Origin: a virus
IMG/VR virus record: IMGVR_UViG_3300035541_000081
Span: 1-61,688 of that record
Length of the DNA stretch: 61,688 bases
Reading direction: 5' to 3' (one strand)
This document shows, piece after piece, positions 28,464 to 53,208 of this stretch (position 1 is its first letter; the number at the start of each line of letters is the position of its first letter). The position numbers and the translations under genes were made by a program. The notes beneath the pieces are model-generated. The model was given only the letters and a program-made list of their open reading frames with translations, did no database searches and was not told where the DNA came from.

Positions 28464-29850
28464 TTATTCTCTTGTCCGTTCACGCTTGCTTGGACGGAAA
28501 GCCCGGCGAATACGAGACTTAATTGTTTGTCTGGTTATTCTGGGTACTATATCAGTCAATTCATTACTTTTCACCCTGGCATTGAATTTTTTCACTTCTA
28601 TGACAATATCCTGCCATTCATCCGGATTCTTTTTTGAAACCGGCTGGGCATGGTAACGAACAATCCGGCTGTAAATCCTGCGTTTCTTTTCAGCGTACTG
28701 CCGTTTCAGTTTGGTTTCATTCCACTGGATTTCACGGGGCTTTGCAATCTTGGTTGGATTTAACCCTGCGGCTCTCATGATACCGGTGCCAAGATCCCCT
28801 TGAACCTGTTCGTTGCCGAAAAACACCTGGTCACCGGCCCGGGTGGTGATGCCTTCGGAGGTTTCCCTATACGCTTTTGCTATATTGCCCATGGCCAGCG
28901 GGGTAATCTTCTCAACCCCTTTCAAATAGTTGCCCTGGGTGATATTAACCCCGCCCTGATAGATATTGCGCATCATGCCGCCAATGGGGCCCAGAACATC
29001 CAGCGGTTCTTTAAAGTCCGGCAGGCCTGGGGCAAGGGAGCCTTTCAAGGAGACCCCGGCCAGTCCGGGCAGTCCATACCGGGCAATATCGCCGCCGGAC
29101 TCGCCGAACATATCTTCAGCCACCTGGTAGATTTTTTCTTCGGGATCATCCTCGCCCATGGCCCTGAAGATCATCTGCACAACAGGCAACGCCAGGGAAC
29201 TGGCCGCCCCGCCGAATATCATAGGGGACAATATCATATATGTAGAAGCCGCCGCCTGTCGCCTGCCGATCATATAAGACAGCGTTGTCATGTAGTTGTG
29301 CATGAACGTTTGGAAAATATACATGGCCGATGCCGCCCGCAACCCCCGGCCTTTCCTGAGTAGTGCCGGTTGGTTCTCAACACCATAAATCCCGTGAGCC
29401 CTGTCAGATACGGTCTTTGCTTTTGACAAGGCATCCTCTTTGGACATGCTCGGATTTTCGGACATGATCCCCTTGTATGCCGCCAAAAGCGTTGTGCCAC
29501 GGTTGAACTCTTCCGTGATCTTAAACGGTGTCATGAGCAATTCAACCGCCCTGCCGTATTTCTGGGCCGGGCCGGATTTCAAGGCGTTGACGGTTTCCAT
29601 GTTCAACTGTGCCGCAACCCAGCCCCGTGAAAATATTTCCTCCAGGATTGCCCGGTCTGCATTTGGCACCGTTCCTTTTCCTGTGACAAAAGAGGCGTAG
29701 GATTTCCCGGCCTTTGCAATGTGCGTTGCTGTTTTCCTTAGCGGAACCCCGCCGTAAGCATCCATGGCCGCCGGAACCGTTGTGCCCATGGCGGTGAGGT
29801 TGATCGCCGCAGAAGACAGGCGCCCACCCAGGAACCACGCCGAGGCCAGT
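28464..29850 (-). other. giant ORF C-terminal region: multi-helix hydrophobic, tape-measure/ejectosome-like segment with a basic tail
   Basis: WFLGGRLSSAAINLTAMGTTVPAAM, LRAASAMYIFQTFMHNYMTTLSYMIG, YMILSPMIFGGAASSLALPVVQMIF, ARYGLPGLAGVSL. Coordinates approximate. Confidence 0.45.
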
Positions 29851-32800
29851 CCCTTCAGGGTGCTAATCACCCGGTCTGCCGCCTCATCGTTTTTGAGAAC
29901 ATTCTCAACAGCGTTTACGGCATCGGTGTATGCCCGTTTCTGCCGTTTCGGGTCAAGCATGTTGTCCTGGATATACTGCCGGTACTCTTTATGGATCTTC
30001 CCCCGTAGCCGGGCAAGTTCCTGGTGCGCGGCGGCGGCCTGGTCGTCATTTTTCCATTTCCTGATTTTTTCTTTTTCCCGGAACAGCGTTCCAATTCGGA
30101 ACAACCGGTCCTGCCTGGCCGCTTCTGATTCCGTGTTTACCCCTACCCGTTCCCGCTGCAACTCTTTAATTTTCTGGTCAATGGCATCAATCCGTTCATT
30201 TTCGGTTTTGGAGTTTTTCTGCATGGTCTTCAAGGATTCTTCCACGGCCTGGAGCGCATCATAATCCGGGTGTTGCTTCTGCCATTCATTCCAGGTGTAG
30301 TGCTGGCCGGTGATGGCCTTGGAGGTGTTCACGGCAACCTGCTGTTTTGCATAGCCGCCTGCCGCAGAGTTCACGGCCTGGGCAAGGGCCTTCAGCGGGT
30401 CGGTTTCATACCCCATGGGGACATCTTTTCCTGTGGCATCAGACCTGGAAATCATCCTGGCCCGGCTTCCCCGCGCTCTCAGGTCGTCAGCCAATTGATT
30501 GGCCAAGCTCTTGGCAATTTCAAATGAGACATCCGCATCTTGTCCCTGGGCCTGAAACAACGCATTTGTAACGATATCCGGCATGTCTTTGGGTGCGTTG
30601 TCAAAGCGATACCCAGGGGACCAACTATTTCCTCCGCGCCCCAGGTCTGAGTATGGCTGCCCCCCTAACTTTTTTAAAACGGATTCAGACCATTCGTAAA
30701 CCCCGCCCGCAGGCAATACATAGTCCTCTCCGCGCCACTCGCCGTTTATGCCCAAATCTTTGAGCGTCCGAAGCTTAGTGTCCAGCTTGGTTTCTGACAA
30801 TGCCTGGTTGACCATGGCCTGTGTGGAAAGGATGCTTTTCACATTCTGGTACACATCCTCGGACATGCTGCCGGTTTTTTCTACCTGAACAGTATATCCC
30901 TGGGATTCCATCTTACCGGCCAAGTAGTCGGCGGTTGATTTAAAATCCCGGTACTCAATAAATGGATGTTCGCCTTCTTTTTCCGCATAGACCCGCCAGT
31001 CACCATTAGACCGTTGCCGTGGAAAGTAATAAGACGACCGTTCGCCCATTTTGGACAGGGCTACCTTTAAGTTGATTCGGTTTTCACCTGCTTCAGTCCG
31101 GGTCACCACCTCCGGTAAGGTCAATCCCCGTTCTTCATACTCCTCTATAATGGACTCCCAGGACTCGGCATAAAAGTCATGGAGATTGGCCGTCACGGTT
31201 CTGAATGCCCTCAATGCGTCACGGGCGGCCGGGTCCGGATATTCATCAACTTCATACTGGATCGCCAGGTCACGGGCCTTGTTTTTCGTCAGTATCCCTT
31301 CTTCTAAAATGGATCGTTTGCCGGTGCGCTCGTCTTTCGGTGACTTTATTGTCCAGGTGCCGTCTTCATCTTGAATGAGCACCGCCCCGATTTGATTGAT
31401 ATCCCGGTCAACCAGGTACTCTTTAAGGTCGGAATAAGCGGCTTTGTTGTGCTTTTGCAAGTCCTCCATTGTGCCGATCATGGACTCTTCGCCGTTTTTA
31501 GACAATTCGTTTTCTTTCTGGAATTTCCATTCCGGCCGCTTCAATAATTCTTCAAAGGTTCTTTTTAATGCCGGGATACTTTCGGAATAGTGGGACATCA
31601 GACCCATTGTATTTTCAAGGACACCAATATCCTTCTTGTATCCAGGCCCCTTGTTCTTCCGGTTTTTAATTACATGCTGAAGGCCGGAAGCTATTTGGCC
31701 GTAGACTTTCTTTTTTTCACTTTCTGTTGGGGCTTTGGCGTCGTCTGATGTTTGGTATCGAATATCCGGATTGCTACCATCCCATGTGCCGCGATTTGCA
31801 ACTGACTTTACCTGTCCAGAACTAAAAACTGAAATCAATGGAGATGCCCCAGGAACTGGAATAATAATCGAATCATACCCACGCAACCTAAGCTTACGCT
31901 TTTTTATTATTGAATCAGTAACGGTTTCAAAACTTTGCGCTTCATCAAGGGACATCTTGTATGGTTTTTTCATTTGGAGATAAGCCTCGATAACATTACC
32001 GCTATCTTTGGCGTATGAATTGGCATAATCACGATCCATAGTGAAGAAGTGACCAAGTCCGGATGCTGTGTGTGTGGTGGACTCTCCTGGACGATCCTCA
32101 AAGACTGTAAATCTATTTGGAGATCCATGAAAAAAACTTACTGGTTCTCCAGATTTTGTTTTTGCCACTGAACCATCAAACCATTTTTTAAATGCTTCAC
32201 TGTCTGTGTTGCCTGCTGTTTGGAAATTCGGCGTACCTTTACTCAGCCCATTCGCCTCTCGCCCATAAATATCCCCACTCTCATATTCCCGGGCCAGCTT
32301 CCGGGCAGACTGCCGGCCGATGTGAACCAGTGCGTCAAAGAAATCCACAATCTTCTGAATTAGTGCGTTAACGTTGGACCCTTCCCGGTAATTGGCTCTA
32401 TCCGCAACAAGTTGGGCCAGGGTGTTGGCCTGGTTTTCCTCCATGTCTTCCTGGATGTCATACCGGTTCTTTTTCTGCGCCTTCAACATCTTTGTCAGAT
32501 TATTGAGCGTTTTCTCGTCTGCCGGGGTAATCATGCCCAGGGCTTTGAGCGCATGGTAGTTTTCATGGATAGCTGTTTCCATGTCAGCCATATTCGTATT
32601 CAGCGTAATTTCACCATCCTGGTATTTTCCAAGAATGACACCGTCGCGCTTCATCCTGCCGGATTCCATGGCAAAGCGGATATCATCACCGCCGATGTGG
32701 TCCACGGTCTTTATGCGGACACCCTTTCCGTTTGTGAAGCGGATGGATAGGATGCCGTCGGGGTTGGTGGTGATTTGCTGGTTTTTGTATTTGGATTTTA

Positions 32801-35800
32801 TTTGGTCGAGAGTTATGCCTTGACCTGGGGCTTTGTCAATTGTTGAGGCAGAGCTATACCGTGGATCTGTCTTTGTTAAATCAAACCGCTTGGATAATGG
32901 AATTGGGTTCCCGTTATCGTCATATGTCACAGGATCAAGGAGCTTGTGATGGAGATGATTGAATTGAGGGTCATATCCAAGTCGATTCAAGTCAAGAACA
33001 TTAAATTCCGTATCTTTGCTTTTATTCCATAATTGTTGAGGAACATCTATTTTCGCAAGGCGTTTATTTACTTCTTTTTGTGAAAGAATCTTGTTGATCT
33101 TTACAGAACCAGAAATATACCACTTCCCAAGTTCTGGCCGATCCTTGAATAATGGGTTGGTCGCATACTCATAATAACCACCTTTAGGTATTCTACGAAG
33201 TCCGGACAATGTCTTGTTTATGCTTCCATCTTTGTTTCGCGCTGCCGAATCTAAATATTCTTGTTTGTAATTGTAATCTGCATCCATTTCAACTTCTGCG
33301 ATCACGGTGTCAAACTCATGCACATTTGGATACGAATACCCATCAGGCACTTCAGGTACTAATTTTTTCTTTTTATTATTAAAGACAGCGTTTCCGGCTT
33401 GTGGGAAGAAGGGAACCTCGCCGCCATGCCACCCAGGGCGATAAGCGACGCTTTTTATACTTTTCGTTGTTGGTTTCTTAATATATCCACGCTTAAACAA
33501 CTCTTGCCGGACCTCGTCATTGGGTATTTTTATTGAAACTCCAGTATCCGCAGGGATATATTCTCTGCCATTGTCCGCTGTGAAATGGTAGCCCCCCTCG
33601 GTTGCGTCCATCCATTGGTTTATTGGCAACTCATCTTTAGCGCCAACGAACATGGGATATAGCTTGCCGTCACGCATCCTGAATGCCTTATAGACCTTTA
33701 CTGTTTTTTTAGGAGGCGACGTTCTCCTGATGCTAAACCCGGTTTCGTTCGTTTTTTCAAAAATTGGCGCACCCGATTTTTCTGCTGCTTCATTCACCAG
33801 TTGTTGCGCAGCTTCCATATCTCCACGCTGAATAGCGTCAAAATATTTCTTGTCCAGGGTTTTAGTGTCCGCATTTTGTTTATCGTCTGAGGTTTGATAT
33901 CGTATATCTGGATTACTGCCGTCCCATGTGCCGGTATTGTAGATAGATTTTATTTGGGTTGGTTCAAGTACACTTAAAACCTCTTGGCCATCCTCTTTAA
34001 AAAGAACGCCATCATACCCCAATGCTTTTAACGCTACAGGGTTTTCAAAAAATAGATATTCATGCCTTGCGTTTAAAGCTCGCTCTGTTTCTATATCAAG
34101 ATAATTGTTGTAATCTCCTCCCCAGGCATTCGGAGTTTCTTTTATACTTTTATTAAAATCTTCTTTGGACTTTATTCTTCCTGTTTTTCTTAAAAACTCA
34201 GTAACGGTATCTATTTCCCCTGAGTCAGCAAGTTCATGTGGCTTGAATATGTTCTCCGCTCTTATATAAACAGGTTTTACATGCAACCCTGGGGCAATCA
34301 TTCTATCTCCATCTTGAAAAACCCCATCTTTTTGACGCATTGCGACTCTTGTCCCGAATTCTTCCGCAAATTTTGATGTGAAAGCAAAAGAGAACATGCC
34401 TGTTGGCGTGTCATTTTCCATATTTCTGTTTTTATCAAACACGGTAAATGGATATATTGTTGCATGATAAACCACCAATGGCTTCCCTTCTTCATCCACA
34501 ATCTCAGAGTTCTTGAACCATTTCTTAAACTCTTTTGAATCCGTATTCCGCTTGTCATTTGATGTGGTAGGGATCTTAACGCCATCGGCAACATCACCCT
34601 CCAGGGCCTCATAAACAGGCATGTTATTCTCATCCATAACCTCCCGGTAATCAACAACCTCCTGGTTCTCGCCCTGCTTGACAATGAGATAATGCCCGTG
34701 TTCGCCCTTGCGGTGTCCGTCAACCTCCCACGGCTCACCCTTATAATAAACCTCCGTGCCGACCGGTGCCCCCTGGGCCAACCATGACGGCGGGGCATCC
34801 GGGTTGCTTTCCAGATCCTGTTCGAGCTGGTCCAAAGACTCTTTTTTGTTCTTTAACGCCTCTTCCTGGGCAAAGGGTTCTTTGACAACTTGTTTGAATT
34901 TGTCCAGGGCGTTTGTTTCTTCTGAAACCTGCTTCCGGGCATTATCCAACATGCTGGGAAAGTTTCTTGTTAAAAAATCAATACTCCCGGTCGCAGGCTT
35001 TATCGGATAGGACAAGTCACGCTCCAGGGTGTATGTATTCCCTTGTCCAACCGACCCGGACACCATGATGTCAAACCCGCGATACGTCCCAATGTTTTTC
35101 TTTTCGGTAAGACGCAGGCCCTGGGCAGATAGCTTCAATGACAGTTTTTCAAAAGCCACATTGGCTTTCTGTCGCTTGGTGTATTTCTTTCCGTCAATCG
35201 TGATGGACCACGGCTCTTTTGACACGGATTGATAGTGCGACATGTCGGATTGCAGACCCTTGACCCGGTCTTTAAGGTTGGGTAGGCGCCGCCCTTCGAT
35301 ATCCTTTATCTTGTTTTTTGCATCAACAACCCCCTGGCCATGGGTTCGTTCTTTCTTTTCCAGCTTATCAATGTCTTTTTTCAACTTTTCACGGATTAAA
35401 ATCCGGGCATCCCCGGCAGCTTCGGAAAAGGAAGAGTTGATTTCATCCAAATCTTTGCTGACCAGGTCAACGGCATCCCCTTCAATGGACCGGACTCCCT
35501 CTTTGGCCTTCAAAAAGTCAGTGATCATTTTTTGTTTCTTGGCCAATACCTGCCAGCGTCTGGCATCGATGCTTTCCGTGATATAGCGGTATTCAAGGAC
35601 CGTGTTCCACCGGTTCCCCTGCCGATGGCCCCGGCCATTGCGCTGTTCTAATTCACCCGGCATCCATGGGGCGTCAAGGTGGTGCATGGCCCTTAAATTT
35701 TCCTGCATATTCGTCCCGGTCCCCAGGGTGGAGGTGAGTCCAATCACCACCCGGATCTCACCTGAATTGACCTTGTTGGCAATTTCCAGGCGTTTCTTTT

Positions 35801-38800
35801 TGGCAACCGAGCTATTGACAATGGCTATCTGCTCTGCCGGAATTCCCCCTTCAATGAGTTTGTTCTTCAGATCCTTAGAGGCGTTGAAGGTGTCCACCTT
35901 GAACTTGGCCTTTCCACCGGCACCATCACTTCTTGACCGGGTTGCCTGATCGTTGTAGCCCTTATCCATGAAAATGACTTGGCTGGCTTTTTCATGCTCC
36001 TGGTAGTGTTTCAACACATTGGTTACACATCTATTTATTTTATTCCGGGGGTGGTCGGACAACTCCTTGTCATATAGTCGTGGATCAAACCCGGCCTTGG
36101 CCGCATCGGTTTCAATGATCACCGGATTGCGGGGATCACCTGATTTCATGATGTCCCTGCGCTCTTTCCCGGAAGCGTCCTTAAAGGACTTGGCCCGGTC
36201 AACAAGCGTTTGTAGGATACCCCGCTGTTCTTCGGACATGTCAGCGACTTCATTCACCAGCTTTTTATACGGCCTGCCGGAAGGATTGCCTTTATCCACC
36301 CGACCATTCACCAACTCATCCCGCTCGGCGTCGGTCAGGTCTTTGCTGTGCAGATCCTTTCCGTTTTTGGTTTTCCTGGGCACGAATTCCGGCATGTCCT
36401 CAGCAAAAACAATGTCCATATATTGACCGGCAAATTTCCGAAGTTCGGACACGTTATGAAAGCCTGATAGCCTGGACACCATTTCATAGTCACCGCTGGA
36501 TGTCCGTTCAATGTCGGATTCAACAGAAGCGAAGGTATTGAACCAGGAATCCCAGGACAGCACGTCAGCCTTTTCCATCTCGTTCGACATGACATATCTC
36601 ATGTGATTGTAGATTTCGTTCAACGTGTTTGTGATCGGCGTTCCCGTGAAAGTATGAACCCCTTTGCCGTTGTTCTGTTCCTTGACATAGGAGGTTAAAA
36701 AATTAAGCCCGATGCTGCGCCCTGACGCTGTCGTGTTCAACCCCTTCACCTTCATCTTGGTGGACAGCGGCGGCTTTTTGAATTCGTGAACCTCGTCAAC
36801 GATAAGCATATCAACTCCGAGGCTTTCAAACGGGATCGCGCCCTCCCGGCTTGCGGCCTGGGACTGTTTTTCAATGTTCTGTATAATCCGGTTCCGTTGC
36901 TTCACCATCTCTTTTGCCGTTGTGGCGCCACGGATTTTTTTCAATGCGTCTTCATCATCAAGTATGTGCTCAATGTCAAACCCCTCATCGGCGGCAGACG
37001 CGATGGCTTCTTCCTCAAGGGACATGATTTCATCCTGGGCCAGGCGATCCAGTGTTTCGCGGGACAGCGTCAGTCGATCCAGTAGAGAGTGCGGCAGGAC
37101 GACGGCATCCCAATCATCATTGGCGATTTGATACAATTTTTGATCAATGGTTTTCGGTGTGAGGTTATCAATATATAGAACCTTTGCGCCCGGGTACATG
37201 CTTTGGATGTCATCGGCGACGCTGGCGCTGTTTGCATTGTGTCCCAGGATCAACGGCTTTTTAGCCAGGCCGTAACGCCTGGACTCAACCGCAATGCCGC
37301 CCATCGTGAACGTCTTGCCGGTTCCAACCTCATGTGCATACAGCCCACGGCCATTGGCAACCCCGCGCCATATGGCATTGACCTGGTGTTTCCGCAGGTT
37401 GAACTCAGACTCCCCCATTTGCAGCATCATGCCGTCAAAGGACAGAAATGATCCATCATAGGCCGGGGTGGCCCAGGCGTTCATGGTTTCATTATAATGC
37501 TGCTCCAGGGCAACCCGCCGGTCAACATCTTTCCAGATCCAGTCCTTTAACGCTTCGCGGAAGGCATCCACCTTTTCATTTGCCGCAGCAGACGCCTCCT
37601 GGTCAACAAATTCGTTGCCATCCTCATCCTTTGACTTGATGGTGATGGTCTGGCCGGTAAAGGCTGCCTTGAGGATTTTGGTGAAGCTGGCCCTTGGCGT
37701 AGCCCAGATGGTTTTCACTTCCTGGCGTCCATCAATCTGACCGGCGTCATCAAATTTGACGATCCACCCATTGTTTGACGGCGTGATGTGAATACCCTTT
37801 GCAATGTCTTCGGGCAGGTTTGCCGTCTCAGTGATGAACTGCTTGTATGTTTCCGACGGTATCCAGGCGGCCCCAAGGTTCGCTTCGATATTGAAATACG
37901 GGATATCATCCGGTATGACGGCTTCCAGGGATTTAATGTTTCGATCCATATCAAGGCCGTCTTCTTTGGCCGCTTTGGCTTCCCGTAGTTTTTCGCGCAC
38001 ATTCCCGGACAGATAGATATCTTTCACCTCAAAGGTTCCGGCAGGCGTTTCAAACACAGCGTCTTTTTTGATCAGTTCAGCCTTGACCGCCTCGGGCGTT
38101 GTCCCGGCTTTTTCTGCAATGGCTTCAATGTCAACAACCCTGGCAACCTCATTGCGGGTCATGACAAAGGCATCGGATATGGAAGGATTCTTTATTTCGG
38201 CCTTTTGCCGCTGGGTGGACGCGGTGAATATCTTGGCCGGTTCATAGACGGGGTTTTCTTTTGTTCCGGTATTTTTTTCCAGGGCGGCCATGGCCGGGGC
38301 CATCGGATCGCCTGCCCGGACAAAATGTTTTAACGCAAACGACCCGTTCAGGTTGCCGTATTTTTTAACGAAGGCTTTATAAAGTTGGTTTAATATAGTC
38401 CTGTGGTTCTCTGCTGTTTTCTCGCCGTTGCGCTCAGCGTCCAGGAGCTTCCCGTACCGCTCCCGGATTCTGACCAGGGATTTTAACTCGGCTTCCCGGG
38501 CCGCCGTTTTTTTCTCATCTTTAACGCTGTACTTTAATGTATCGTCAAGCCTTGCAAGCCGTTCGCCCCTGACGATGTAGAGCCCGTTGTCTTTTATGGT
38601 GACGCTGTTCTGTCGCTCGGTGGTGTTGTTCGTGATATAGTTGACATGGTCAATTTGCCCCCGTTTGGTGAAGATGTTTTTCGGCAGGCGCTCTGTCAAG
38701 CTGCTCAAGACATCTTCATATCCCCGCTTGCGCTCAACAATCATGCCTTCCCGGCCTTGTGTTGTGCCGTGGCCAATGGTCATGTTCCCGAGAACATTTT

Positions 38801-41800
38801 CGGGCTTGTGGGTCCAGTATTCGTTTACCTTGATCTCTTTGCCGTCAGCGGCTTTACCAAGGACAGTGTTTTCAAGCCAGGCCGCGTCATGGTTGACGGC
38901 TGCGCCTTCTGCCCGTTTTTTGAGGATGATTACGTCGGCCACGACCTTTGTCCCGGCATATTTTTGGAACGCACCGGCAGGCATACGAAATGCGGCAACA
39001 AGATCTGCGCGTTTTTCCATTTGGCGTCGGGCTATTTTCCCCACCTTGTCCATGGTGCCCGAAGCGGTGATCCCGACAACAAGTCCCCCCTCCCGGACCT
39101 GATCCAGGGCTTTGACGAAAAAGTAATCATGCAGCGTCAAGTTATATTTGTTGTATCGTCGATCGGCAGGTCCCTGTGCATCAAACGGCCAGTTGCCCAG
39201 CACCAGGTCATAAAATTCATCTGCGGTCTTGCTGTCCTGGTATCCCATTTGCTGGATGTTCGCCTCCGGGTATAACATTTTTGCCATACCTGCGGTGGTT
39301 TCATCCAGTTCAATCCCGGTTAAGTCGCTGTTTGATTTTAAGCCCTTGGGCATCAAACCAAAAAAATTACCGACTCCCATGGAAGGCTCAAGGACACGGC
39401 CCCCGTTAAACCCGAGTTGCTTAACGATGTCCCAGACAGCGGATACGGTTGGTGGGTCCGTATAGTGAGCATTTCTGATTGACCTTTGTGCGGATTCCCA
39501 GGCAGACTTGCCCAGGTGCGATCTTAGCCACTCGCCTTCTTTGGCCCAGCCGTCTTTATAGGTTGGGTTTTCAAATGTGCCCTGGAACAACTCCTGGCCA
39601 AAAGAGCCCCACCCGATATATGCGGCCATGGTGTCGCGTTCTTCTGCGGTTGGGCGACGGCCTTCATTGGAGACTTCATTGAAGACCTCAATGGCCTTTT
39701 GATTTTTCTTGAATCTGACTTTCGGGGTTCCGCCGATTAACGCCTCGGGGTCTTCAATGTGATAGTTTTCTAATACTCTGTCGGACTCTCCGGGTATTCC
39801 TGTTCCTCTGGCTCGTTCTGCTCCTCCGGGTCCATTATCATCCAGTCCTGTTCCGCTTGCATCTTCGCGTCCGAACTGTTCATCCCGGCGGCCCTCAGCG
39901 CGTCCCACTCCTCCATCATCTTGCATTCCAGGACGTAGGCCGTTTCCTTCAACAGCCCCTGGCGCTTCAGATCCGCGTACATCTTCGGGCGCTGATGTTT
40001 CCAGAGTGTTATCAGATCCTGTTGTTTCGGGCTCGACATTGCTGGCCAACACTCCGTCTCGTCCTCCTGGAATCGTTTCACCGTCTTCTTGACCCAGGCT
40101 TTGTATTCCTGGTCTTCCGTCATTTTCTTGGGATTCTTGGGACTGATCATCGTTGACCTCCTCTGTTGTGGGTGTGGGTGCAGGCGTGGTTTCATTCTCT
40201 ATTGCGTCTGTCCCCTTGTCAAGGGTGTTCGATTCGGTCATCCCCGCAGAATCAAACCCCGGGAAGTGTCGAACTCCTTCATAGAAAGAGCGCAGGTACG
40301 GCTTGACGGACTCGCCAACATCATTAACCATGGCCTTGGAATATTCTGCAAAGGTCCGGGCACCGGCTTCGACATGATACCCGGCCAACTGGATACCGGC
40401 CAGCATGATTTCAGGATCTATCCCGGAATTTAGCTGGTTGCCGGATAGCTTTTTACGGAGGACTTCCCGGGCCTTGTCGGCTGCGTCTTTGGTAAATACC
40501 TTGTTCTTTGCGCCGTAATCAGCCTTGTTTTCCGTGTCAACAGGCTCGAACTTTTTAAAGTCTTCCGGGAATCGCTCTTTCCCTGGCACACCTTTGAGTG
40601 TAAGCATCCCATTCTTTGATATGCTTTTAATTTCAACAGGGTCTTGTGACGCGAATGGATGTTTTTTAGAATCAATATCAAGGACAACCTTATCACCAAC
40701 CTTGAAGCCTTTTTTTGTCGGGTCTTCTTCATATGTTACTTCTTGTCGGGTTGAGGCTCCTGTTCTTCCGGGATCTTCATCGCGTCCTTGATCGCTCCTT
40801 GCAGTATCGCCCGTTTCGCTTCCCGGGACTCTTCCTTTGTCGGCCTGTTCTTCAAATAAGTTTTGCTGCTTGTCTTCGTACTTTTCATGTAAAAACTCCT
40901 TGGCGGTTTCAATTAGGTCTTTTGATGTTAACGTCTTCTTTGTACCAAACATTTCAGCTTGTGCCAAGTCCGCGATATACGCACGGAGGCGAACGCCTAT
41001 AGAATCAAAAAATTCACCAATTCGTTTTCCGCTCCTGATATTATCTGCCAAAAACTGAGCAATGGCCGTCACTTCTTCACTGGGGCCACCACCAAATAAG
41101 TCTCCCTGGTCAATTGTCTGGCGTAATTGTGCTTGTAGAGCTGTCCGACCGTTCCCCGCCTTAATGTCCGGATACTCTTTTTTTGCCCTGCGTAACAATT
41201 CAATGCCGTCAACGATATCATTGACAATGCCAATGTCGGCAAGATCCTTGTCAAGGCCACGCGCCTTCACGAAATTAGACGCCCCATTGGTCAGGCCGTT
41301 TAAGATGTTTTTAATGTCAGTGCTTGCTTCTTCCGCAGATAGCTTTAATAATTCGTCAGAGTTGTACGCTTTCTGGAACACGGCGGCCTGAACCCGGTCT
41401 ATCAACTGTTTATTGGCTCGGCCATCGTCTGTAATATATCCTGACCGTTCTTCAGGAGACATTTTATCAAGAAACAGATCAATAAATCCTTTATTCGTTG
41501 CAGCCATTAGGTTTCCGTCCTGGTCTGGCCTGAACATAGCCAGATCATCAGAGGATAGATTACCGGCATCCACTATGGCCTGCTCGGTTGAGCTCATCTT
41601 AGCAATGTCTGTTTCGTTTGCTTTTTGGGCAAAAGAAACGAGGTCGCCTATCTTTTCCGGGTCAACCACTCGAATCAAAACACCATCTGTATCGGTCCCA
41701 AAATTATCTGCATTTTGATCGAAATATTTTAAATAAGCACTAAGCTTATCGTTGGTTTGTGCTTTTCGTAAGGCCATCGTTCTGGCGTTGCCTGAAATGA

Positions 41801-44651
41801 TAACGTATCTTGGGATGCCATTTTTATCAACCCCACGAGGGATAGCTATTGGTGCGCCATGGGATACACTTGTACTTCCTGCCAATCTTTCCGGGTTTGG
41901 ATTATCTGCAATCTTGTCAACCTGCACAAGTGACATTATCCTTTTTCTATCCCTTGGCTGCAATTCTTTAGGATATTCTGGATTTGGCTCCATAGTATCG
42001 TTATGGGATGTGATAAGGCTTTCTACGGGAACTCTATGATATTCAAACTCGATGGGCGTATTATCGTTTAGGTATGTGGTGCCCGACTTGGTCCCGACTT
42101 GGTCCCGGCTTGGTCCCGGCTTAGTCTCTGTTTGTGAACCACTAACCATATCAGGATAATCTTTTAGCACAGAATCAGGAACTTTTTTTCCATTCAGTGG
42201 AATCTGATGTGACTTTCCATCCTTGGTCGTAACGGTCAGTGCATCAAATGTAATTTCTTTTCCCGCAAAGGATTTATCCCCAACATATTTCTTGCCTTCG
42301 CCCTTCTTGACATAGGCAATCGTGGCATGTGGCATATAATCAAAGGTTTCACCCTTTGGCAAAGATATGTCAGCTTCCTGCTCAATTTTTTTATTCAGTG
42401 CGTGTAGTTCCGGGCTGTCCACCTCGACCTTGACCACGTCGTATTTGTCGTTTTCAAAAATGGAAACATCGCCCATCTTGGCTGTGATCGGAGGATGGTT
42501 TCCAATAATGGGAGCAACGTCCATGGGTGTATTGGTTTTAAGTCCATACTTAACAGTTATATGTGGCTCATCCTCTCGGCCATAGGAGGAGTCGTTTGGA
42601 TCTGTATAAATCTCTGAGTCTGGGATGTTCTTGGCAAAAGCACGGATTTCATTTGCGTCTTTGGTTGGAATGTCTACCTGGGTGCTGCTGTGGTCGTAAA
42701 TTCTATTGTTTTCAGAAGCCTGCTGATCCTCAACCACCGTCAATTTCCTTTCCGGCATGATGGAGTTCGCGCCACTGTCAAGGGTGATGTGCCAGTTCTT
42801 CCCATGTTTTTTGTTCAGGGTGCCAAAGAACTCTTTACCCTTTTTATTTTTCCAGGTTACGGAGGTGCCTGGAGTCATGGGGGTGTCTGTGGTGGTGATT
42901 TCATCGGTCATGGGGGTGACTGTGGACTCTTTTTGAGCCTCAATGACTTTACTCCCCTTAATCCCGCCAGGGGCCTGTTCATCAACAATACCGGGGCCGA
43001 TTATATTTCCAACATCATCCGGGGTAATCTCCGGTCCACCCGCGTTGTCAATGTCCAGATTTGCGTAAAGACTCTCAACCTCATTGTCTTCCATCTTCGG
43101 AATATCGGCCATGTCCTGTGGCTCTTCTGTCTCAAATAGGGATTCTGTCTCCGGGATGGCTTCTGCTTGCTGTTCTTCCTCAACGGACACCGCCTGACTT
43201 GGGACAACATCCACTGGTACCGCCTGCTCTGCTGTCTCAGGTGACGCCGAGTCCGGTGTCTCAACGATTGTTGACGGTTCAGGTGTTTCGGTTTCCTCCA
43301 TTTGCTGTAAAACACCACGCGCCTGCACAAGCTCTTGTAGGTATTGTTCAATCCTATTTTTTTGTGCATCGGTTGGGTTTTGAAACTCAGATAGATTTTT
43401 TACTTTGGTTTCCAGCTTGGCCACATGTTCAACAACCCGACCTTTTTCCACTTCCCGGGCGCCTGCCTGACGAACCTCCTCCTCCATTGCGGCAAACTCA
43501 ACAAAGTTGCCGTTAATGTCGATGGTTTCCCCCTGGTCAATGCGATCCATGGCCATGTCCGCAAAGGCTTTGGCGTTTTCTTTCCCTTCCGGGGTATTAT
43601 CCGCGTCAACAATGGCTTTCTCCAGAGCCTCAACGGCTTTCTCCCGGGCCTGGGGATTTTCCATATCATTTAACTGCCGCTTCAATGATCTTTTCTGAAC
43701 TGTTGTCATGGCCCCGGAACCAACTCCGAAAAGCAAACTCATGGTGATAGCCGGTATGATTGCTTCCGCTGCCGCTTCTTTCCACGCGCCTTCCTCTGCC
43801 AACCCTAAACCGGTTTCAACCTGCATACCGAGGGCTTCCTGCACCATCTCCGTGGGCACTTCTAATAACGTGTTTTTGGAAAATCCTTTGGCCCATTCTT
43901 TGGCAGGGGTTTTTAGCAGTTCGTTAATGCTTTGCTTGAGCGGCTGGGATACCAGCTTGTCGACCTTAAATATCTTTAACCCGATATAGCCGGTCACAGC
44001 CTCAATGCCACCTTCTATAAATCCTTGCTTTAATGCCGCTTTGTGAGCGTCTTCTTCATTGATGCCATGGTCAAGGTATTCCTGCTTCTTTTCCCCGTAT
44101 ACGCCCAGGCCAAAAAGCCCAAGGTTCCCAAGAAATCCACCGGCCAGCGCACCGGCCGGACCACCGAAAGCAGTCCCAACGGCGGCACCGGCAAACGTCG
44201 GCGCAAGCGAAGGCACAGAAGACCGAACGCCACCCTTCCAGCCGCGCGAAAAGAAGTTCTCACCGGCGGCCTCGGATTCATCCAGTTTCATGATATCCAG
44301 GCTTTTGGATTTGTCTGCCATGTCAACCAGACCCTGGCCGATGTTCTCAACAACGTCCAGTCCACCATCAGGATCTATCGTTTTCAACGCATACCCGCCC
44401 ATCCGGGTAAGGTCTGCCGCGCCCCGGGCAAGGTTGGATGCTACATCCCCAACAAACCCGCGCTCAGGGGAAACACCGCCTTTTGCCTGAATCGGCCCTG
44501 GCGCATATTGTTCCTGGTCTTCAAACAAATCTCGATAACCCGGCGCATTGTCCCAGGCAAGCTTATGTTTTTTTTCCAGTTCGTCCGGGTCTTGTTTACT
44601 GAACCTGTCAAGGATTCCGCTGTTTATGTCGTCGTCTGTTAGGTATGGCAT
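28464..44651 (-). CDS. giant multidomain 'polyvalent' virion/ejection protein (5,395 aa)
   Basis: Uninterrupted 16,188-nt ORF in the late operon. Ordered catalytic motifs of 2H phosphoesterase, ParB-like, N6-MTase, SNF2 helicase, ART-like x2 and HExxH, with hydrophobic N- and C-terminal regions. Confidence 0.9.
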   Translation of the reverse strand: MPYLTDDDINSGILDRFSKQDPDELEKKHKLAWDNAPGYRDLFEDQEQYAPGPIQAKGGVSPERGFVGDVASNLARGAADLTRMGGYALKTIDPDGGLDVVENIGQGLVDMADKSKSLDIMKLDESEAAGENFFSRGWKGGVRSSVPSLAPTFAGAAVGTAFGGPAGALAGGFLGNLGLFGLGVYGEKKQEYLDHGINEEDAHKAALKQGFIEGGIEAVTGYIGLKIFKVDKLVSQPLKQSINELLKTPAKEWAKGFSKNTLLEVPTEMVQEALGMQVETGLGLAEEGAWKEAAAEAIIPAITMSLLFGVGSGAMTTVQKRSLKRQLNDMENPQAREKAVEALEKAIVDADNTPEGKENAKAFADMAMDRIDQGETIDINGNFVEFAAMEEEVRQAGAREVEKGRVVEHVAKLETKVKNLSEFQNPTDAQKNRIEQYLQELVQARGVLQQMEETETPEPSTIVETPDSASPETAEQAVPVDVVPSQAVSVEEEQQAEAIPETESLFETEEPQDMADIPKMEDNEVESLYANLDIDNAGGPEITPDDVGNIIGPGIVDEQAPGGIKGSKVIEAQKESTVTPMTDEITTTDTPMTPGTSVTWKNKKGKEFFGTLNKKHGKNWHITLDSGANSIMPERKLTVVEDQQASENNRIYDHSSTQVDIPTKDANEIRAFAKNIPDSEIYTDPNDSSYGREDEPHITVKYGLKTNTPMDVAPIIGNHPPITAKMGDVSIFENDKYDVVKVEVDSPELHALNKKIEQEADISLPKGETFDYMPHATIAYVKKGEGKKYVGDKSFAGKEITFDALTVTTKDGKSHQIPLNGKKVPDSVLKDYPDMVSGSQTETKPGPSRDQVGTKSGTTYLNDNTPIEFEYHRVPVESLITSHNDTMEPNPEYPKELQPRDRKRIMSLVQVDKIADNPNPERLAGSTSVSHGAPIAIPRGVDKNGIPRYVIISGNARTMALRKAQTNDKLSAYLKYFDQNADNFGTDTDGVLIRVVDPEKIGDLVSFAQKANETDIAKMSSTEQAIVDAGNLSSDDLAMFRPDQDGNLMAATNKGFIDLFLDKMSPEERSGYITDDGRANKQLIDRVQAAVFQKAYNSDELLKLSAEEASTDIKNILNGLTNGASNFVKARGLDKDLADIGIVNDIVDGIELLRRAKKEYPDIKAGNGRTALQAQLRQTIDQGDLFGGGPSEEVTAIAQFLADNIRSGKRIGEFFDSIGVRLRAYIADLAQAEMFGTKKTLTSKDLIETAKEFLHEKYEDKQQNLFEEQADKGRVPGSETGDTARSDQGRDEDPGRTGASTRQEVTYEEDPTKKGFKVGDKVVLDIDSKKHPFASQDPVEIKSISKNGMLTLKGVPGKERFPEDFKKFEPVDTENKADYGAKNKVFTKDAADKAREVLRKKLSGNQLNSGIDPEIMLAGIQLAGYHVEAGARTFAEYSKAMVNDVGESVKPYLRSFYEGVRHFPGFDSAGMTESNTLDKGTDAIENETTPAPTPTTEEVNDDQSQESQENDGRPGIQSLGQEDGETIPGGRDGVLASNVEPETTGSDNTLETSAPEDVRGSEAPGAVEGNGLRPGMQDDGGVGRAEGRRDEQFGREDASGTGLDDNGPGGAERARGTGIPGESDRVLENYHIEDPEALIGGTPKVRFKKNQKAIEVFNEVSNEGRRPTAEERDTMAAYIGWGSFGQELFQGTFENPTYKDGWAKEGEWLRSHLGKSAWESAQRSIRNAHYTDPPTVSAVWDIVKQLGFNGGRVLEPSMGVGNFFGLMPKGLKSNSDLTGIELDETTAGMAKMLYPEANIQQMGYQDSKTADEFYDLVLGNWPFDAQGPADRRYNKYNLTLHDYFFVKALDQVREGGLVVGITASGTMDKVGKIARRQMEKRADLVAAFRMPAGAFQKYAGTKVVADVIILKKRAEGAAVNHDAAWLENTVLGKAADGKEIKVNEYWTHKPENVLGNMTIGHGTTQGREGMIVERKRGYEDVLSSLTERLPKNIFTKRGQIDHVNYITNNTTERQNSVTIKDNGLYIVRGERLARLDDTLKYSVKDEKKTAAREAELKSLVRIRERYGKLLDAERNGEKTAENHRTILNQLYKAFVKKYGNLNGSFALKHFVRAGDPMAPAMAALEKNTGTKENPVYEPAKIFTASTQRQKAEIKNPSISDAFVMTRNEVARVVDIEAIAEKAGTTPEAVKAELIKKDAVFETPAGTFEVKDIYLSGNVREKLREAKAAKEDGLDMDRNIKSLEAVIPDDIPYFNIEANLGAAWIPSETYKQFITETANLPEDIAKGIHITPSNNGWIVKFDDAGQIDGRQEVKTIWATPRASFTKILKAAFTGQTITIKSKDEDGNEFVDQEASAAANEKVDAFREALKDWIWKDVDRRVALEQHYNETMNAWATPAYDGSFLSFDGMMLQMGESEFNLRKHQVNAIWRGVANGRGLYAHEVGTGKTFTMGGIAVESRRYGLAKKPLILGHNANSASVADDIQSMYPGAKVLYIDNLTPKTIDQKLYQIANDDWDAVVLPHSLLDRLTLSRETLDRLAQDEIMSLEEEAIASAADEGFDIEHILDDEDALKKIRGATTAKEMVKQRNRIIQNIEKQSQAASREGAIPFESLGVDMLIVDEVHEFKKPPLSTKMKVKGLNTTASGRSIGLNFLTSYVKEQNNGKGVHTFTGTPITNTLNEIYNHMRYVMSNEMEKADVLSWDSWFNTFASVESDIERTSSGDYEMVSRLSGFHNVSELRKFAGQYMDIVFAEDMPEFVPRKTKNGKDLHSKDLTDAERDELVNGRVDKGNPSGRPYKKLVNEVADMSEEQRGILQTLVDRAKSFKDASGKERRDIMKSGDPRNPVIIETDAAKAGFDPRLYDKELSDHPRNKINRCVTNVLKHYQEHEKASQVIFMDKGYNDQATRSRSDGAGGKAKFKVDTFNASKDLKNKLIEGGIPAEQIAIVNSSVAKKKRLEIANKVNSGEIRVVIGLTSTLGTGTNMQENLRAMHHLDAPWMPGELEQRNGRGHRQGNRWNTVLEYRYITESIDARRWQVLAKKQKMITDFLKAKEGVRSIEGDAVDLVSKDLDEINSSFSEAAGDARILIREKLKKDIDKLEKKERTHGQGVVDAKNKIKDIEGRRLPNLKDRVKGLQSDMSHYQSVSKEPWSITIDGKKYTKRQKANVAFEKLSLKLSAQGLRLTEKKNIGTYRGFDIMVSGSVGQGNTYTLERDLSYPIKPATGSIDFLTRNFPSMLDNARKQVSEETNALDKFKQVVKEPFAQEEALKNKKESLDQLEQDLESNPDAPPSWLAQGAPVGTEVYYKGEPWEVDGHRKGEHGHYLIVKQGENQEVVDYREVMDENNMPVYEALEGDVADGVKIPTTSNDKRNTDSKEFKKWFKNSEIVDEEGKPLVVYHATIYPFTVFDKNRNMENDTPTGMFSFAFTSKFAEEFGTRVAMRQKDGVFQDGDRMIAPGLHVKPVYIRAENIFKPHELADSGEIDTVTEFLRKTGRIKSKEDFNKSIKETPNAWGGDYNNYLDIETERALNARHEYLFFENPVALKALGYDGVLFKEDGQEVLSVLEPTQIKSIYNTGTWDGSNPDIRYQTSDDKQNADTKTLDKKYFDAIQRGDMEAAQQLVNEAAEKSGAPIFEKTNETGFSIRRTSPPKKTVKVYKAFRMRDGKLYPMFVGAKDELPINQWMDATEGGYHFTADNGREYIPADTGVSIKIPNDEVRQELFKRGYIKKPTTKSIKSVAYRPGWHGGEVPFFPQAGNAVFNNKKKKLVPEVPDGYSYPNVHEFDTVIAEVEMDADYNYKQEYLDSAARNKDGSINKTLSGLRRIPKGGYYEYATNPLFKDRPELGKWYISGSVKINKILSQKEVNKRLAKIDVPQQLWNKSKDTEFNVLDLNRLGYDPQFNHLHHKLLDPVTYDDNGNPIPLSKRFDLTKTDPRYSSASTIDKAPGQGITLDQIKSKYKNQQITTNPDGILSIRFTNGKGVRIKTVDHIGGDDIRFAMESGRMKRDGVILGKYQDGEITLNTNMADMETAIHENYHALKALGMITPADEKTLNNLTKMLKAQKKNRYDIQEDMEENQANTLAQLVADRANYREGSNVNALIQKIVDFFDALVHIGRQSARKLAREYESGDIYGREANGLSKGTPNFQTAGNTDSEAFKKWFDGSVAKTKSGEPVSFFHGSPNRFTVFEDRPGESTTHTASGLGHFFTMDRDYANSYAKDSGNVIEAYLQMKKPYKMSLDEAQSFETVTDSIIKKRKLRLRGYDSIIIPVPGASPLISVFSSGQVKSVANRGTWDGSNPDIRYQTSDDAKAPTESEKKKVYGQIASGLQHVIKNRKNKGPGYKKDIGVLENTMGLMSHYSESIPALKRTFEELLKRPEWKFQKENELSKNGEESMIGTMEDLQKHNKAAYSDLKEYLVDRDINQIGAVLIQDEDGTWTIKSPKDERTGKRSILEEGILTKNKARDLAIQYEVDEYPDPAARDALRAFRTVTANLHDFYAESWESIIEEYEERGLTLPEVVTRTEAGENRINLKVALSKMGERSSYYFPRQRSNGDWRVYAEKEGEHPFIEYRDFKSTADYLAGKMESQGYTVQVEKTGSMSEDVYQNVKSILSTQAMVNQALSETKLDTKLRTLKDLGINGEWRGEDYVLPAGGVYEWSESVLKKLGGQPYSDLGRGGNSWSPGYRFDNAPKDMPDIVTNALFQAQGQDADVSFEIAKSLANQLADDLRARGSRARMISRSDATGKDVPMGYETDPLKALAQAVNSAAGGYAKQQVAVNTSKAITGQHYTWNEWQKQHPDYDALQAVEESLKTMQKNSKTENERIDAIDQKIKELQRERVGVNTESEAARQDRLFRIGTLFREKEKIRKWKNDDQAAAAHQELARLRGKIHKEYRQYIQDNMLDPKRQKRAYTDAVNAVENVLKNDEAADRVISTLKGLASAWFLGGRLSSAAINLTAMGTTVPAAMDAYGGVPLRKTATHIAKAGKSYASFVTGKGTVPNADRAILEEIFSRGWVAAQLNMETVNALKSGPAQKYGRAVELLMTPFKITEEFNRGTTLLAAYKGIMSENPSMSKEDALSKAKTVSDRAHGIYGVENQPALLRKGRGLRAASAMYIFQTFMHNYMTTLSYMIGRRQAAASTYMILSPMIFGGAASSLALPVVQMIFRAMGEDDPEEKIYQVAEDMFGESGGDIARYGLPGLAGVSLKGSLAPGLPDFKEPLDVLGPIGGMMRNIYQGGVNITQGNYLKGVEKITPLAMGNIAKAYRETSEGITTRAGDQVFFGNEQVQGDLGTGIMRAAGLNPTKIAKPREIQWNETKLKRQYAEKKRRIYSRIVRYHAQPVSKKNPDEWQDIVIEVKKFNARVKSNELTDIVPRITRQTIKSRIRRAFRPSKRERTRE
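31740..32140 (-). other. giant ORF: ART-like module 2
   Basis: SFFHGSPNRFTVFED...GLGHFFT...ISVFSSGQVKSVANRGTWDGSNPDIRYQTSDD. Coordinates approximate. Confidence 0.4.
32350..32800 (-). other. giant ORF: HExxH zincin-like metallopeptidase motif region
   Basis: METAIHENYHALKALG (HENYH coded at about 32547-32573). Domain limits approximate. Confidence 0.4.
33895..34480 (-). other. giant ORF: ART-like module 1
   Basis: PLVVYHATIYPFTVFD...LSVLEPTQIKSIYNTGTWDGSNPDIRYQTSDD. Coordinates approximate. Confidence 0.4.
35560..37420 (-). other. giant ORF: SNF2/DEAD-like helicase
   Basis: LRKHQVNAIWRG, YAHEVGTGKTF (motif I, about 37305-37335), MLIVDEVHEF (motif II, about 36781-36810), LGTGTNMQ...APWMPGELEQRNGRGHRQGN (motifs V/VI). 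Confidence 0.85.
38900..39780 (-). other. giant ORF: gamma-class N6-adenine DNA methyltransferase
   Basis: Motif I VLEPSMGVGNFFG (about 39365-39395) precedes motif IV LVLGNWPF (about 39183-39200). Confidence 0.7.
41600..42060 (-). other. giant ORF: ParB/Srx-like nuclease/NTPase domain
   Basis: IEFEYHRVPVESLITSHN ... PRYVIISGNARTMALRKA. Coordinates approximate. Confidence 0.5.
42079..42122. repeat. 11-bp tandem repeat x4 inside the giant ORF (g[tg/gt]cccg[a/g]ctt)
   Basis: gtgcccgactt ggtcccgactt ggtcccggctt ggtcccggctt. The unit length is not a multiple of 3. Encodes KPGPSRDQVGTKSGT. Confidence 0.9.
42150..42690 (-). other. giant ORF: 2H phosphoesterase (LigT/Acb1-like fold) domain
   Basis: Two H-x-T-x motifs: EPHITVKYG (His codon 42561-42563) and MPHATIAYV (His codon 42327-42329), 78 residues apart. 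Confidence 0.6.
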
Positions 44652-47521: not shown

Positions 47522-47530
47522 AAATAATCC

Positions 47531-49429: not shown

Positions 49430-49883
49430 TTGGTAATATTGAAATATTATCTATAGCAAAAACTGTTCCTGAACTATATATTTGTATAGTCCAGTATCTA
49501 CCTTTTAATGTTCTATTGATAATAAGTTTTCTTGCCTGTTGTCCTGTTGAAGTTGCTGATAAAGTATAAGATTCTTCTTTAGAAAGTTCTGTTGATATTT
49601 TTACTATAAGATCTCCATCAGCTTCATAACCAAAATAAAGTGCTCTGAATCTTTTTTGATTACTAATACCAAAATCTAATGTTTTAAGTTCAAAATAAGA
49701 AGTAATATTATTATATGTACCATCATTTGATGGAAACATATCTGTAGTTCCTTCCATAATAAATAAACCATCATTACCAGCACAAAAGAACTTATTTTTA
49801 AACTTACATAAAGAATCAAAATCAAAATTTAAGTATTGTGTAGTAGCATTTATTTTATTTACATTAGTATCAAAAATAATCAT
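49398..49883 (-). CDS. hypothetical tail-module protein
   Basis: 161-aa ORF in very AT-rich DNA, where long ORFs are unlikely by chance. Confidence 0.65.
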   Translation of the reverse strand: MIIFDTNVNKINATTQYLNFDFDSLCKFKNKFFCAGNDGLFIMEGTTDMFPSNDGTYNNITSYFELKTLDFGISNQKRFRALYFGYEADGDLIVKISTELSKEESYTLSATSTGQQARKLIINRTLKGRYWTIQIYSSGTVFAIDNISILPIVRSHGFDKN

Positions 49884-51025: not shown

Positions 51026-51037
51026 ATTAATCTCCCA

Positions 51038-51367
51038 TTAACTTGAAGCTACATCAATATTTGACCATTCAATATCACCTAAAGAATTAATTTTATGTAG
51101 TCCAAGAGAATCTAAAACATAAACCATTCCATCATCACCAATAGTTATTGATACTATCCCAGAAAAAGAAGAATTACTCCAAAGATTTTCTCCAAGTGAA
51201 GAAAAAGCATAAATTGTATTTGCATCAATCTGAACTATACATCCTCCATTAGATGATACAGCAATATCTTTTTGGTCTGGCTGAGTAGTTATTTCTTGAA
51301 TTTTAGTCCAAAGAAGTTCTCCTGAAGAAGATATTTTATGTACTCTTGTATAATTCGTAGCAGTCAT
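51038..51367 (-). CDS. small beta-propeller-repeat-like protein
   Basis: Three G(E/D)xxWS/T motifs (SGELLWTK, GENLWSN, GDIEWSN) at about 40-aa spacing. Confidence 0.55.
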   Translation of the reverse strand: MTATNYTRVHKISSSGELLWTKIQEITTQPDQKDIAVSSNGGCIVQIDANTIYAFSSLGENLWSNSSFSGIVSITIGDDGMVYVLDSLGLHKINSLGDIEWSNIDVASS

Positions 51368-51369
51368 AA

Positions 51370-52731: not shown

Positions 52732-52740
52732 TTAAAATCC

Positions 52741-53187
52741 TTACGTTGGATTTGCAGTAACTTCGAACAAACCACTGGATAAATTAAGCGTTAATGTTGT
52801 TCCATCTGTAGCAGTATAATTTGCTCCAAATTCAATACAACAAACAACAGTATCATTTGAATGAGTATCATTAATAATTGCACATGCTTTTGTAGCCTCA
52901 ATTGAGCCACCTGAAGCTGTCCAAGAAATATTATCTGCATTTAAAGTTATAACTCCTGCAGCTTGATCTAATGATACAGTGGTTAAAGTTTTAGTTTTTT
53001 GTGTATATCCATTACCAGTAGCAATTTCATTTGCATAAATATCTGAATAAGTACTATCTGAAGTAGGATCAAAAGTAGTATATGAAGTATCGAGTAAAAT
53101 AGCTACAAGACTATCATTAACAAGATCATGTTCACCTTTAGAATATTCTTCATTAAACTGATTACTTACTTTACATGTAATAGCCAT
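52741..53187 (-). CDS. hypothetical virion protein
   Basis: 148-aa ORF, T/S/N-rich and beta-rich. Confidence 0.65.
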   Translation of the reverse strand: MAITCKVSNQFNEEYSKGEHDLVNDSLVAILLDTSYTTFDPTSDSTYSDIYANEIATGNGYTQKTKTLTTVSLDQAAGVITLNADNISWTASGGSIEATKACAIINDTHSNDTVVCCIEFGANYTATDGTTLTLNLSSGLFEVTANPT

Positions 53188-53208
53188 AATATATTATCCT
53201 TATAAAAA

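Follow-up and report, generated by a model that had tools for sequence, protein, structure and literature searches.

The 61,688-nucleotide stretch of viral DNA analysed here (record IMGVR_UViG_3300035541_000081, hereafter the window) contains a minus-strand open reading frame (ORF) for a DarB-like polyvalent protein of 5,395 amino acids (aa), and within this giant protein two diverged ADP-ribosyltransferase (ART) modules end in one and the same 17-residue peptide, GTWDGSNPDIRYQTSDD. This tail belongs to a conserved module-end motif, partly disordered by prediction, which is trimmed off by current domain models and is common to modules that are otherwise unrelated. Because it is conserved, partly disordered, portable, placed at module ends and alike within a polypeptide, we think it probable, with some reserve, that the tail works as a linear motif recognised by a partner common to the modules. 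The explanation that we prefer overall, in which such a motif is read by a shared factor and cleavage is its likeliest use, seems to us about evenly poised.

An earlier commentary made from the letters of the window by a model (the sequence-only reading) had reported an identical peptide at the end of both modules, and this was borne out: all the peptides that it quoted were found in one minus-strand ORF, and LSVLEPTQIKSI and ISVFSSGQVKSV stand directly before the two copies of the tail. It had placed the second copy correctly and the first, at 33895-33945, 13 nucleotides (nt) too high. It had also counted 7 differences in about 50 positions of the underlying DNA, all synonymous; there are 8 in 51, falling in 8 of the 17 codons, and every one of them is indeed synonymous. 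Outside the tail, non-synonymous changes affect 8 of the 12 upstream codons and each of the 8 downstream ones. Random draws from the codon usage of the giant ORF gave an expectation of 10.05 +/- 1.87 differing codons, with a probability of 0.10 for 8 or fewer nucleotide differences. The tail codons are thus near full randomisation, that is, close to independent choice, and the pair is therefore neither an assembly repeat nor a recent duplication of DNA, as the sequence-only reading had held; the identity is maintained at the level of the protein and not of the DNA.

The rarity of such a pair was judged within the ART family to which both modules belong. An initial homologue search with module 2 gave no matches, and homologues came from a full HMMER scan of a library clustered at 50% identity, which returned 7,589 matches; the best 150 proteins were used, and their alignment comprised 291 ART instances, 210 of them full length. 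From the per-column identities of 208 members, the chance of identity at 17 of 17 positions is 3.7e-11 for pairs between proteins and 3.5e-7 for pairs within a protein, and the shared tail includes residues that are rare in the family (W137 in 12, G139 in 6 and Q147 in 9 of the 208). Among 16,361 pairs of family modules a single further pair has identical tails, with cores 48% identical as against 28% here, and no pair of the set is more extreme than the present one (core 28%, tail 100%).

A simple old duplication of the two modules, kept at the protein level, was how the sequence-only reading had explained the identity, and this is not supported by the sequence comparisons. In a ranking by core identity to module 1, module 2 comes 176th of 238, and in the ranking for module 2 its sister comes 109th of 242; both thus have closer relatives elsewhere, and the orthologues of module 2 in proteins P0010 and P0005 (core identity 64% and 61%) carry different tails, GTWDITNPDIRFQTVED and GTWDINNPDIRFEVRE, respectively. 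By their HMMER matches the interval consists of four independently shuffled modules, ART1, X, M and ART2; the M-ART2 pair recurs in P0005, P0010, P0052 and P0059, and P0061 carries GTWDGSNPDIRY on a core about 30% identical. The closest relative phage, L007 (IMGVR_UViG_3300002220_000428), shares the C-terminal backbone and the M module at 74-84% amino-acid identity. Its architecture differs upstream, and its only ART core is another one, which carries the same 23-aa island, PTQIKSIYNTGTWDGSNPDIRYQ, 100% identical between flanks that cannot be aligned. The two phages differ synonymously in 8 of 22 codons of the island, which is similar to or slightly below the divergence of the orthologous backbone (0.47-0.55). 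Because L007 keeps the island on a different ART core, it is the tail that is constant in this lineage, and the ART cores that are variable cassettes. Searches of IMG/VR and of metagenomes, and a search with an exact-peptide DNA pattern, returned no close relative with both ARTs and gave L007 alone, with its single ART.

A search for the motif in other phage mega-proteins, which the sequence-only reading had advised, showed the tail to be a conserved C-terminal ending of the ART-PolyVal family as a whole. The 210 full-length members have the consensus QIKSAIGNnGtFDpaNPDIRFS, with N133 in 183, G135 in 185, an aromatic residue at 137 in 195, I144 in 177 and R145 in 129 of them, and an 11-residue core can be written as F-[DN]-P-x3-D-[IV]-R-[FY]-[SQ]. 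The motif is likewise found in a Massilia plasmid protein and in phage F116 gp60, the tail of which reads ...GTFDASTPDILFSRSG. The Pfam model of the family, PF18760, stops about 15 residues short of the conserved end, at ...QIKSAIGN, and domain annotation therefore systematically hides the motif. A literature search with the motif string gave no relevant paper, no mention of it was found in the paper describing the polyvalent proteins (Iyer et al. 2017, PMC5512222), and both the motif and the dialect described below look undescribed.

The same ending is found on modules of other kinds. The X family closes with IPLSxRF-[ND]-P-x3-D-[IV]-R-[YF]-[SQ], in which the spacing from the aromatic residue to the Asp is that of the ART tail, and when its ends are set in the register of that tail F is present in 91, D in 71, R in 69 and Y/F in 76 of 94. 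A regular expression, [DN][IVLP]R[FY][SQTRA], matched 153 times in 151 proteins, as against 12.3 times in shuffled sequences, and 92 of these matches were ART ends and 44 were X ends. M-domain ends show [FY][QS][TS] at a fixed offset in 13 of 37 cases, compared with a background of 4.7%, and in P0104 an M domain is followed by NPDIRYQTSED. In a structural model of module 2 made with AlphaFold 2 (AF2), the segment GTWDGSNPDI has a predicted local distance difference test score (pLDDT) of about 73 and RYQTSDDAKA one of about 48, and the second half of the tail is predicted to be disordered. The linker after the tails is short, with a median gap of 13.5 aa to the next ART. Dickeya phage JA11 (L034, coding sequence 850-1527) encodes a stand-alone ART-PolyVal protein of 225 aa that ends in ...QIKSAIGNKGTFKPRTENILE and the stop codon, two residues past the conserved Ile; this single example keeps the first half of the tail (G-N-x-G-T-F-x-P-...-N-I) and is without the R-[FY]-[SQ] half. 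The NCBIfam 'PLxRFG' motif was considered as a possible equivalent of the tail and rejected, being a distinct motif, YFPLSRFG, deep inside the C-terminal domain.

Tails resemble one another within a protein more than their cores would predict, so that the motif has a dialect specific to each protein. At equal core identity, tail identity is 0.49 for modules of the same protein and 0.34 for modules of different proteins. This within-protein excess amounts to +0.14 to +0.18 in the tail and to -0.02 to +0.04 in five control segments of the ART domain, among them the equally conserved N-terminus and QIKS strand. It is concentrated in columns 143-149, D-I-R-F-S-x-x, and is positive in 26 of 30 multi-copy proteins (sign test, p=6e-5), of which the giant ORF ranks first. 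Some relatives hold about 17-22 ART modules in one protein (18 domains by the full-length model, 22 stretches by phmmer), where up to 12 copies had been described (Iyer et al. 2017, PMC5512222). Two of them, P0007 and P0012, each of roughly 4,600-5,000 aa, have many ART-PolyVal modules, with up to 22 stretches by phmmer and with 13 and 16 by Pfam.

The two modules themselves are almost certainly members of the known ART-PolyVal family. Both exceed the gathering threshold of PF18760 (31.2 bits), with E values of 2e-17 for module 1 and 2e-21 for module 2, and the sequence-only reading was right in seeing two ART-like modules here and in naming an ART family specific to polyvalent proteins. That family forms an H-Y-D clade related to Tox-ART-HYD2 (Iyer et al. 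2017, PMC5512222). The H-Y-E type that the same reading had named is another matter: the catalytic Glu of diphtheria toxin and the PARPs is absent, and the strand-5 position (G-Y-D-G) is Asp in both modules (Asp3547 and Asp4260) and in 206 of the 210 members. The strand-1 His, of the motif (Y/F)-H-G-(T/S), is also kept in both (YHAT His3396 and FHGS His4175) and in 199 of the 210, and lies in strand 25-30 of the AF2 model of module 2. At the strand-2 position (G-F-Y-F-T) the family has Y in 86, F in 63, W in 30 and H in 14 members; module 2 has Phe4202, and in module 1 the residue depends on the alignment, being Ala by the hidden Markov model (HMM) and Phe in an ungapped comparison with the nearest relative. 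Of the catalytic set that the sequence-only reading had advised looking for, the His and the acidic residue are kept, and neither of the outcomes that it had named as refuting it, a fold unlike that of ARTs or the lack of a conserved triad, was obtained. Module 1 also has 76 residues between family match columns 78 and 104, where the family median is 35.

The predicted fold of module 2 is ART-like, as had been expected. The AF2 model (pLDDT 83.6) matched PARP/tankyrase catalytic domains when compared by Foldseek with the PDB (tankyrase 2 at E 2.3e-4, with a template-modelling (TM) score of about 0.42), and also 6KYF at E 8.5e-4, which is AcrIF11, a phage anti-CRISPR ADP-ribosyltransferase (10.1101/2024.08.26.609590). 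Compared with viral models it matched ART-PolyVal proteins at E values down to 6.5e-14 and a TM score of 0.72. A PDB sequence search with the whole four-module interval gave nothing useful. Both modules are probably enzymes that use NAD+ to ADP-ribosylate macromolecules of the host, and they may, as the sequence-only reading had supposed, be injected and have different targets; a literature search found no published assay of the family. ART-PolyVal domains and their multi-copy arrays have been known since 2017, and the two ARTs are nothing new in kind.

Between the ARTs lie modules X and M. X has no Pfam match and belongs to a large family (141 matches among the best 150 proteins) in which AYRPGWHxGxxPFFPQ is nearly invariant; its last ~35 residues, TYDDxGNxIPLSxRF...D[IV]R[FY]S, also occur on their own beside other modules. 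M is a candidate metallopeptidase: of 36 homologues, 35-36 retain each of the H, E and H of HExxH and a Glu further downstream (E135). In its AF2 model (pLDDT 69) the HExxH falls within helix 88-101, following a beta-sheet. The invariants of the M family are HExxH, E135, R148, Q162, D166 and E187, and the module as a rule immediately precedes an ART of the module 2 subfamily. No match to M was found in PHROGs or in a PDB profile search, and no separate prohead protease was found among the head genes with PHROGs.

A possible mechanism can be put together from these elements. The first part of the tail, N-x-G-x-[FW]-D-x3-P-D-I, is the ART family's own C-terminal extension, and the second, R-[FY]-[QS]-[TS]-S-D-D, is a short boundary motif, predicted to be disordered, with which unrelated modules end as well. 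Among the modules of one protein the tail keeps a uniform wording as the catalytic cores diverge or are exchanged, and it would be read by a single factor that all of these modules share. Processing by cleavage at the tail could then free individual effectors, and the adjacent HExxH module M, placed between the two ARTs, could be the protease. Thermolysin-type enzymes prefer a hydrophobic P1' residue, and a cut near the R-[FY] bond would fit this preference. We rank processing first because an embedded metallopeptidase has been proposed to process polyvalent proteins (Iyer et al. 2017, PMC5512222), because the linkers are short, and because M, with its HExxH and Glu, lies between the ARTs. A protease as the shared partner of the tail is a tentative choice, and it is unlikely, on our own estimate, that this protease is M. 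In the widest form of the proposal, polyvalent phage proteins would be true polyproteins, in which F-[DN]-P-x3-D-[IV]-R-[FY]-[SQ] is cut between R and [FY] by an embedded, unclassified HExxH peptidase, with lineage-specific dialects matched to each lineage's own protease and with cassettes swapped between constant junctions; this we consider somewhat unlikely. The sequence-only reading had suggested a processing or docking signal, an idea that stays a proposal and is strengthened by the predicted disorder, by the motif on an unrelated domain and by the within-protein dialect.

Several points weigh against cleavage by an embedded peptidase. Transfer without processing is known for the virion RNA polymerase of phage N4 and for some polyvalent proteins of plasmids (PMC5512222), and cleavage has so far been shown for no ART-PolyVal protein. 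Part of the conservation of the tail may be structural, since its first half is modelled with moderate confidence and is retained by the stand-alone ART. The peptidase nature of M is that of a candidate, judged by motifs and predicted secondary structure: Foldseek comparison of its model, with a pLDDT of only 69, gave no significant PDB match (best E 0.93), M has no Pfam match with 26 members searched, and an hhalign comparison with the DUF6782-like region of F116 gp60 was negative (probability 0.2). The dialect statistics describe the best 150 matches to this query, which are not an unbiased sample. Within the giant ORF, a scan with a position-specific scoring matrix found the full motif at the two ART ends only and nowhere in the first 3,300 residues, and for that reason it was not accepted as a punctuation mark between all modules of the protein; the shorter boundary expression [FY][QS][TS][SAT] gave 4 matches where 0.86 were expected, but it was designed after the sites had been seen.

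Predicted disorder, portability between unrelated modules and a tail-specific dialect would fit equally well with a docking or targeting motif, the shared partner of which could be the capsid, the portal, a packaging chaperone, the ejection channel or, after injection, a host protein. P1 DarB is directed to the capsid by a short signal (PMC9024508), and no protease was confirmed in the Foldseek, Pfam, hhalign and PHROGs searches. The DarB signal, however, is N-terminal, and a packaging signal is needed once per polypeptide, yet some proteins hold about 17-22 ARTs, about half of them with a tail recognised by the regular expression; moreover, the motif lies always exactly at the C-terminal edge of a module and is followed by a short linker, which is the geometry of a separation site. 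We consider docking rather unlikely. If the tail were instead a structural cap or linker of the ART-PolyVal fold, with its identity due to structural constraint and no signalling role, its family-wide conservation, comparable to that of catalytic positions, would be accounted for, as would the pLDDT of GTWDGSNPDI and the first tail half retained by the JA11 protein. Such a cap should co-vary with its own core, yet the orthologues of module 2 carry different tails, and the excess similarity is found between tails of the same protein and in the tail only. As the same 11-mer also closes the unrelated X fold and the RYQTSDD half is predicted to be disordered, we regard a purely structural role as improbable.

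The presence of the same tail on at least four different ART cores, and of the 23-aa island shared with L007 between unalignable flanks, could also point to identity kept at the DNA level, either through gene conversion or because the tail is a recombination joint at which ART-core cassettes are exchanged; the synonymous divergence of the island, which does not exceed that of the backbone, agrees with this. The twin tails, however, differ in 8 of 17 codons, indistinguishably from independent codon choice, and the longest stretch of DNA that they share without a mismatch, 11 nt, is too short to support homologous exchange at present. Since every difference is synonymous, selection on the peptide is needed whatever created the identity, and an explanation at the DNA level is very improbable. 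It is scarcely credible that the tail serves the ART as a pseudo-substrate or as a site of auto-modification, with an Arg, Asp or Ser of the tail lying in the active site or being ADP-ribosylated so that the ART stays silent until release. This reading is a speculation from the general target chemistry of ARTs; the conserved Arg145, Asp143 and Ser147 do stand next to the ART domain, in a tail that is flexible in the model, but the motif also ends the non-ART X module, nothing points to the tail reaching the NAD+ pocket, and the per-protein dialect is left unexplained.

If the tail is a processing or docking site, the proposal that giant proteins are cut into effectors by embedded peptidases becomes testable. 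Mass spectrometry on phages that can be cultivated, F116 among them, could then be aimed at exact sites; mutagenesis would have defined residues to target, and single effector modules could be expressed between their natural boundaries.

The window also codes for a portal, a major head protein, a head-closure protein, a large terminase and a primase (PHROGs); because portal, head and terminase genes are present, it is from a phage, and the giant gene lies among virion genes. Polyvalent proteins are single polypeptides of phages or conjugative elements that combine a number of unrelated enzymatic domains and are encoded with virion or transfer genes (Iyer et al. 2017, PMC5512222), and the 5,395-aa ORF, with its 2H, DdrB-ParB, methylase, SNF2, two ART and PLxRFG domains and the virion genes nearby, agrees with this description. 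Its methylase/SNF2 block matches phrog_10089 ('DarB-like antirestriction') at 1257.6 bits, and its position among virion genes suggests packaging and injection. The C-terminal PLxRFG 'tail-700' domain has hydrophobic stretches that, judged by eye from the sequence alone, resemble membrane-spanning segments, and its PLxRFG motif is degenerate (YYFPRQRSNG); this domain may be the part of the giant protein that contributes to an ejection channel. Elsewhere, a low-GC island at 46000-54000 (GC 0.29-0.36, as against 0.44-0.54 in the rest of the window) contains an ORF at 47531-49429 for a protein of 632 aa with a C-terminal CAP/SCP domain (PF00188), as well as ORFs at 49398-49883, 49880-51025 and 51370-52731 that gave no family matches. 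The island may have been gained horizontally, as a cassette for tail or host-range functions. The coordinates of the features of the giant ORF are given in Table 1.

Table 1. Features of the giant ORF, in window positions and, where assigned, residues of the 5,395-aa protein.
Feature	Window position	Residues (aa)	Strand	Basis or remark
Tail copy 1, GTWDGSNPDIRYQTSDD	33882-33932	3574-3590	minus	
Tail copy 2, GTWDGSNPDIRYQTSDD	31740-31790	4288-4304	minus	
ART-PolyVal module 1, including tail	33873-34526	3376-3593	minus	PF18760, 64.7 bits; family HMM alignment
Module 1 opening peptide, VVYHATIYPFTVFD	34434-34475	3393-3406	minus	
Module 1 strand-1 His	34464-34466	3396	minus	
Module 1 strand-5 Asp	34011-34013	3547	minus	
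ART-PolyVal module 2, including tail	31731-32189	4155-4307	minus	PF18760, 77.5 bits; AF2 and Foldseek
Module 2 opening peptide, SFFHGSPNRFTVFED	32094-32138	4172-4186	minus	
Module 2 strand-1 His	32127-32129	4175	minus	
Module 2 strand-2 Phe	32046-32048	4202	minus	
Module 2 strand-5 Asp	31872-31874	4260	minus	
X module	32847-33869	3595-3935	minus	HMMER family matches; phrog_30118 (function unknown)
X module end, FDLTKTDPRYSSAS	32844-32885		minus	Spacing as in ART tail
M module, candidate metallopeptidase	32217-32837	3939-4145	minus	Ends NFQTAG (FQTAG at 32211-32225)
M module HENYH	32553-32567		minus	
M module invariant Glu	32436-32438	4072	minus	
DarB-like polyvalent protein	28464-44651		minus	5,395 aa, single ORF
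2H phosphoesterase	42300-42605		minus	Family searches on the 5,395-aa protein
DdrB-type ParB domain	41667-42065		minus	Family searches on the 5,395-aa protein
N6-adenine methylase and SNF2 helicase	about 34701-39881		minus	phrog_10089 match block
PLxRFG 'tail-700' domain, C-terminal	28500-30017	4879-5384	minus	Family searches

Among known systems, the two ARTs are closest to ART-PolyVal (PF18760), with scores well above threshold, the His and Asp retained, and repeated occurrence within a phage polyvalent protein. They differ from it in the strand-2 Tyr, replaced by Phe in module 2 and by Ala or Phe in module 1, in the insertion of module 1, about 40 residues longer than the median, and, as the family is currently modelled, in a conserved tail that lies outside PF18760 and for which we found no mention in Iyer et al. 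2017. In structure, PARP/tankyrase catalytic domains and AcrIF11 (6KYF) are the best matches to the module 2 model, although module 2 shares just 10-14% sequence identity with them and its catalytic acid is Asp and not Glu. As a whole, the giant protein resembles P1 DarB and other Dar-type virion proteins, having a giant methylase and SNF2 helicase and virion-gene neighbours and being presumably packaged and injected; unlike DarB, which it exceeds more than twofold in size, it adds 2H, ParB, two ARTs, X, M and PLxRFG, and it is so far known from its predicted sequence. Viral polyproteins have a short cleavage motif of virus-specific wording at the boundaries of unrelated domains and a protease embedded in the chain, and the giant ORF is like them in its repeated boundary motif and embedded candidate protease, although its motif marks some boundaries only (ART, X and partly M) and both cleavage and protease are putative. 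Phage T4 Alt, an ART packaged in the head that enters with the DNA and modifies proteins of the host (PMC5512222), offers a functional analogy. Unlike the ARTs of the giant ORF, Alt is a single-domain effector of the R-S-E clade that stands outside any polyvalent protein.

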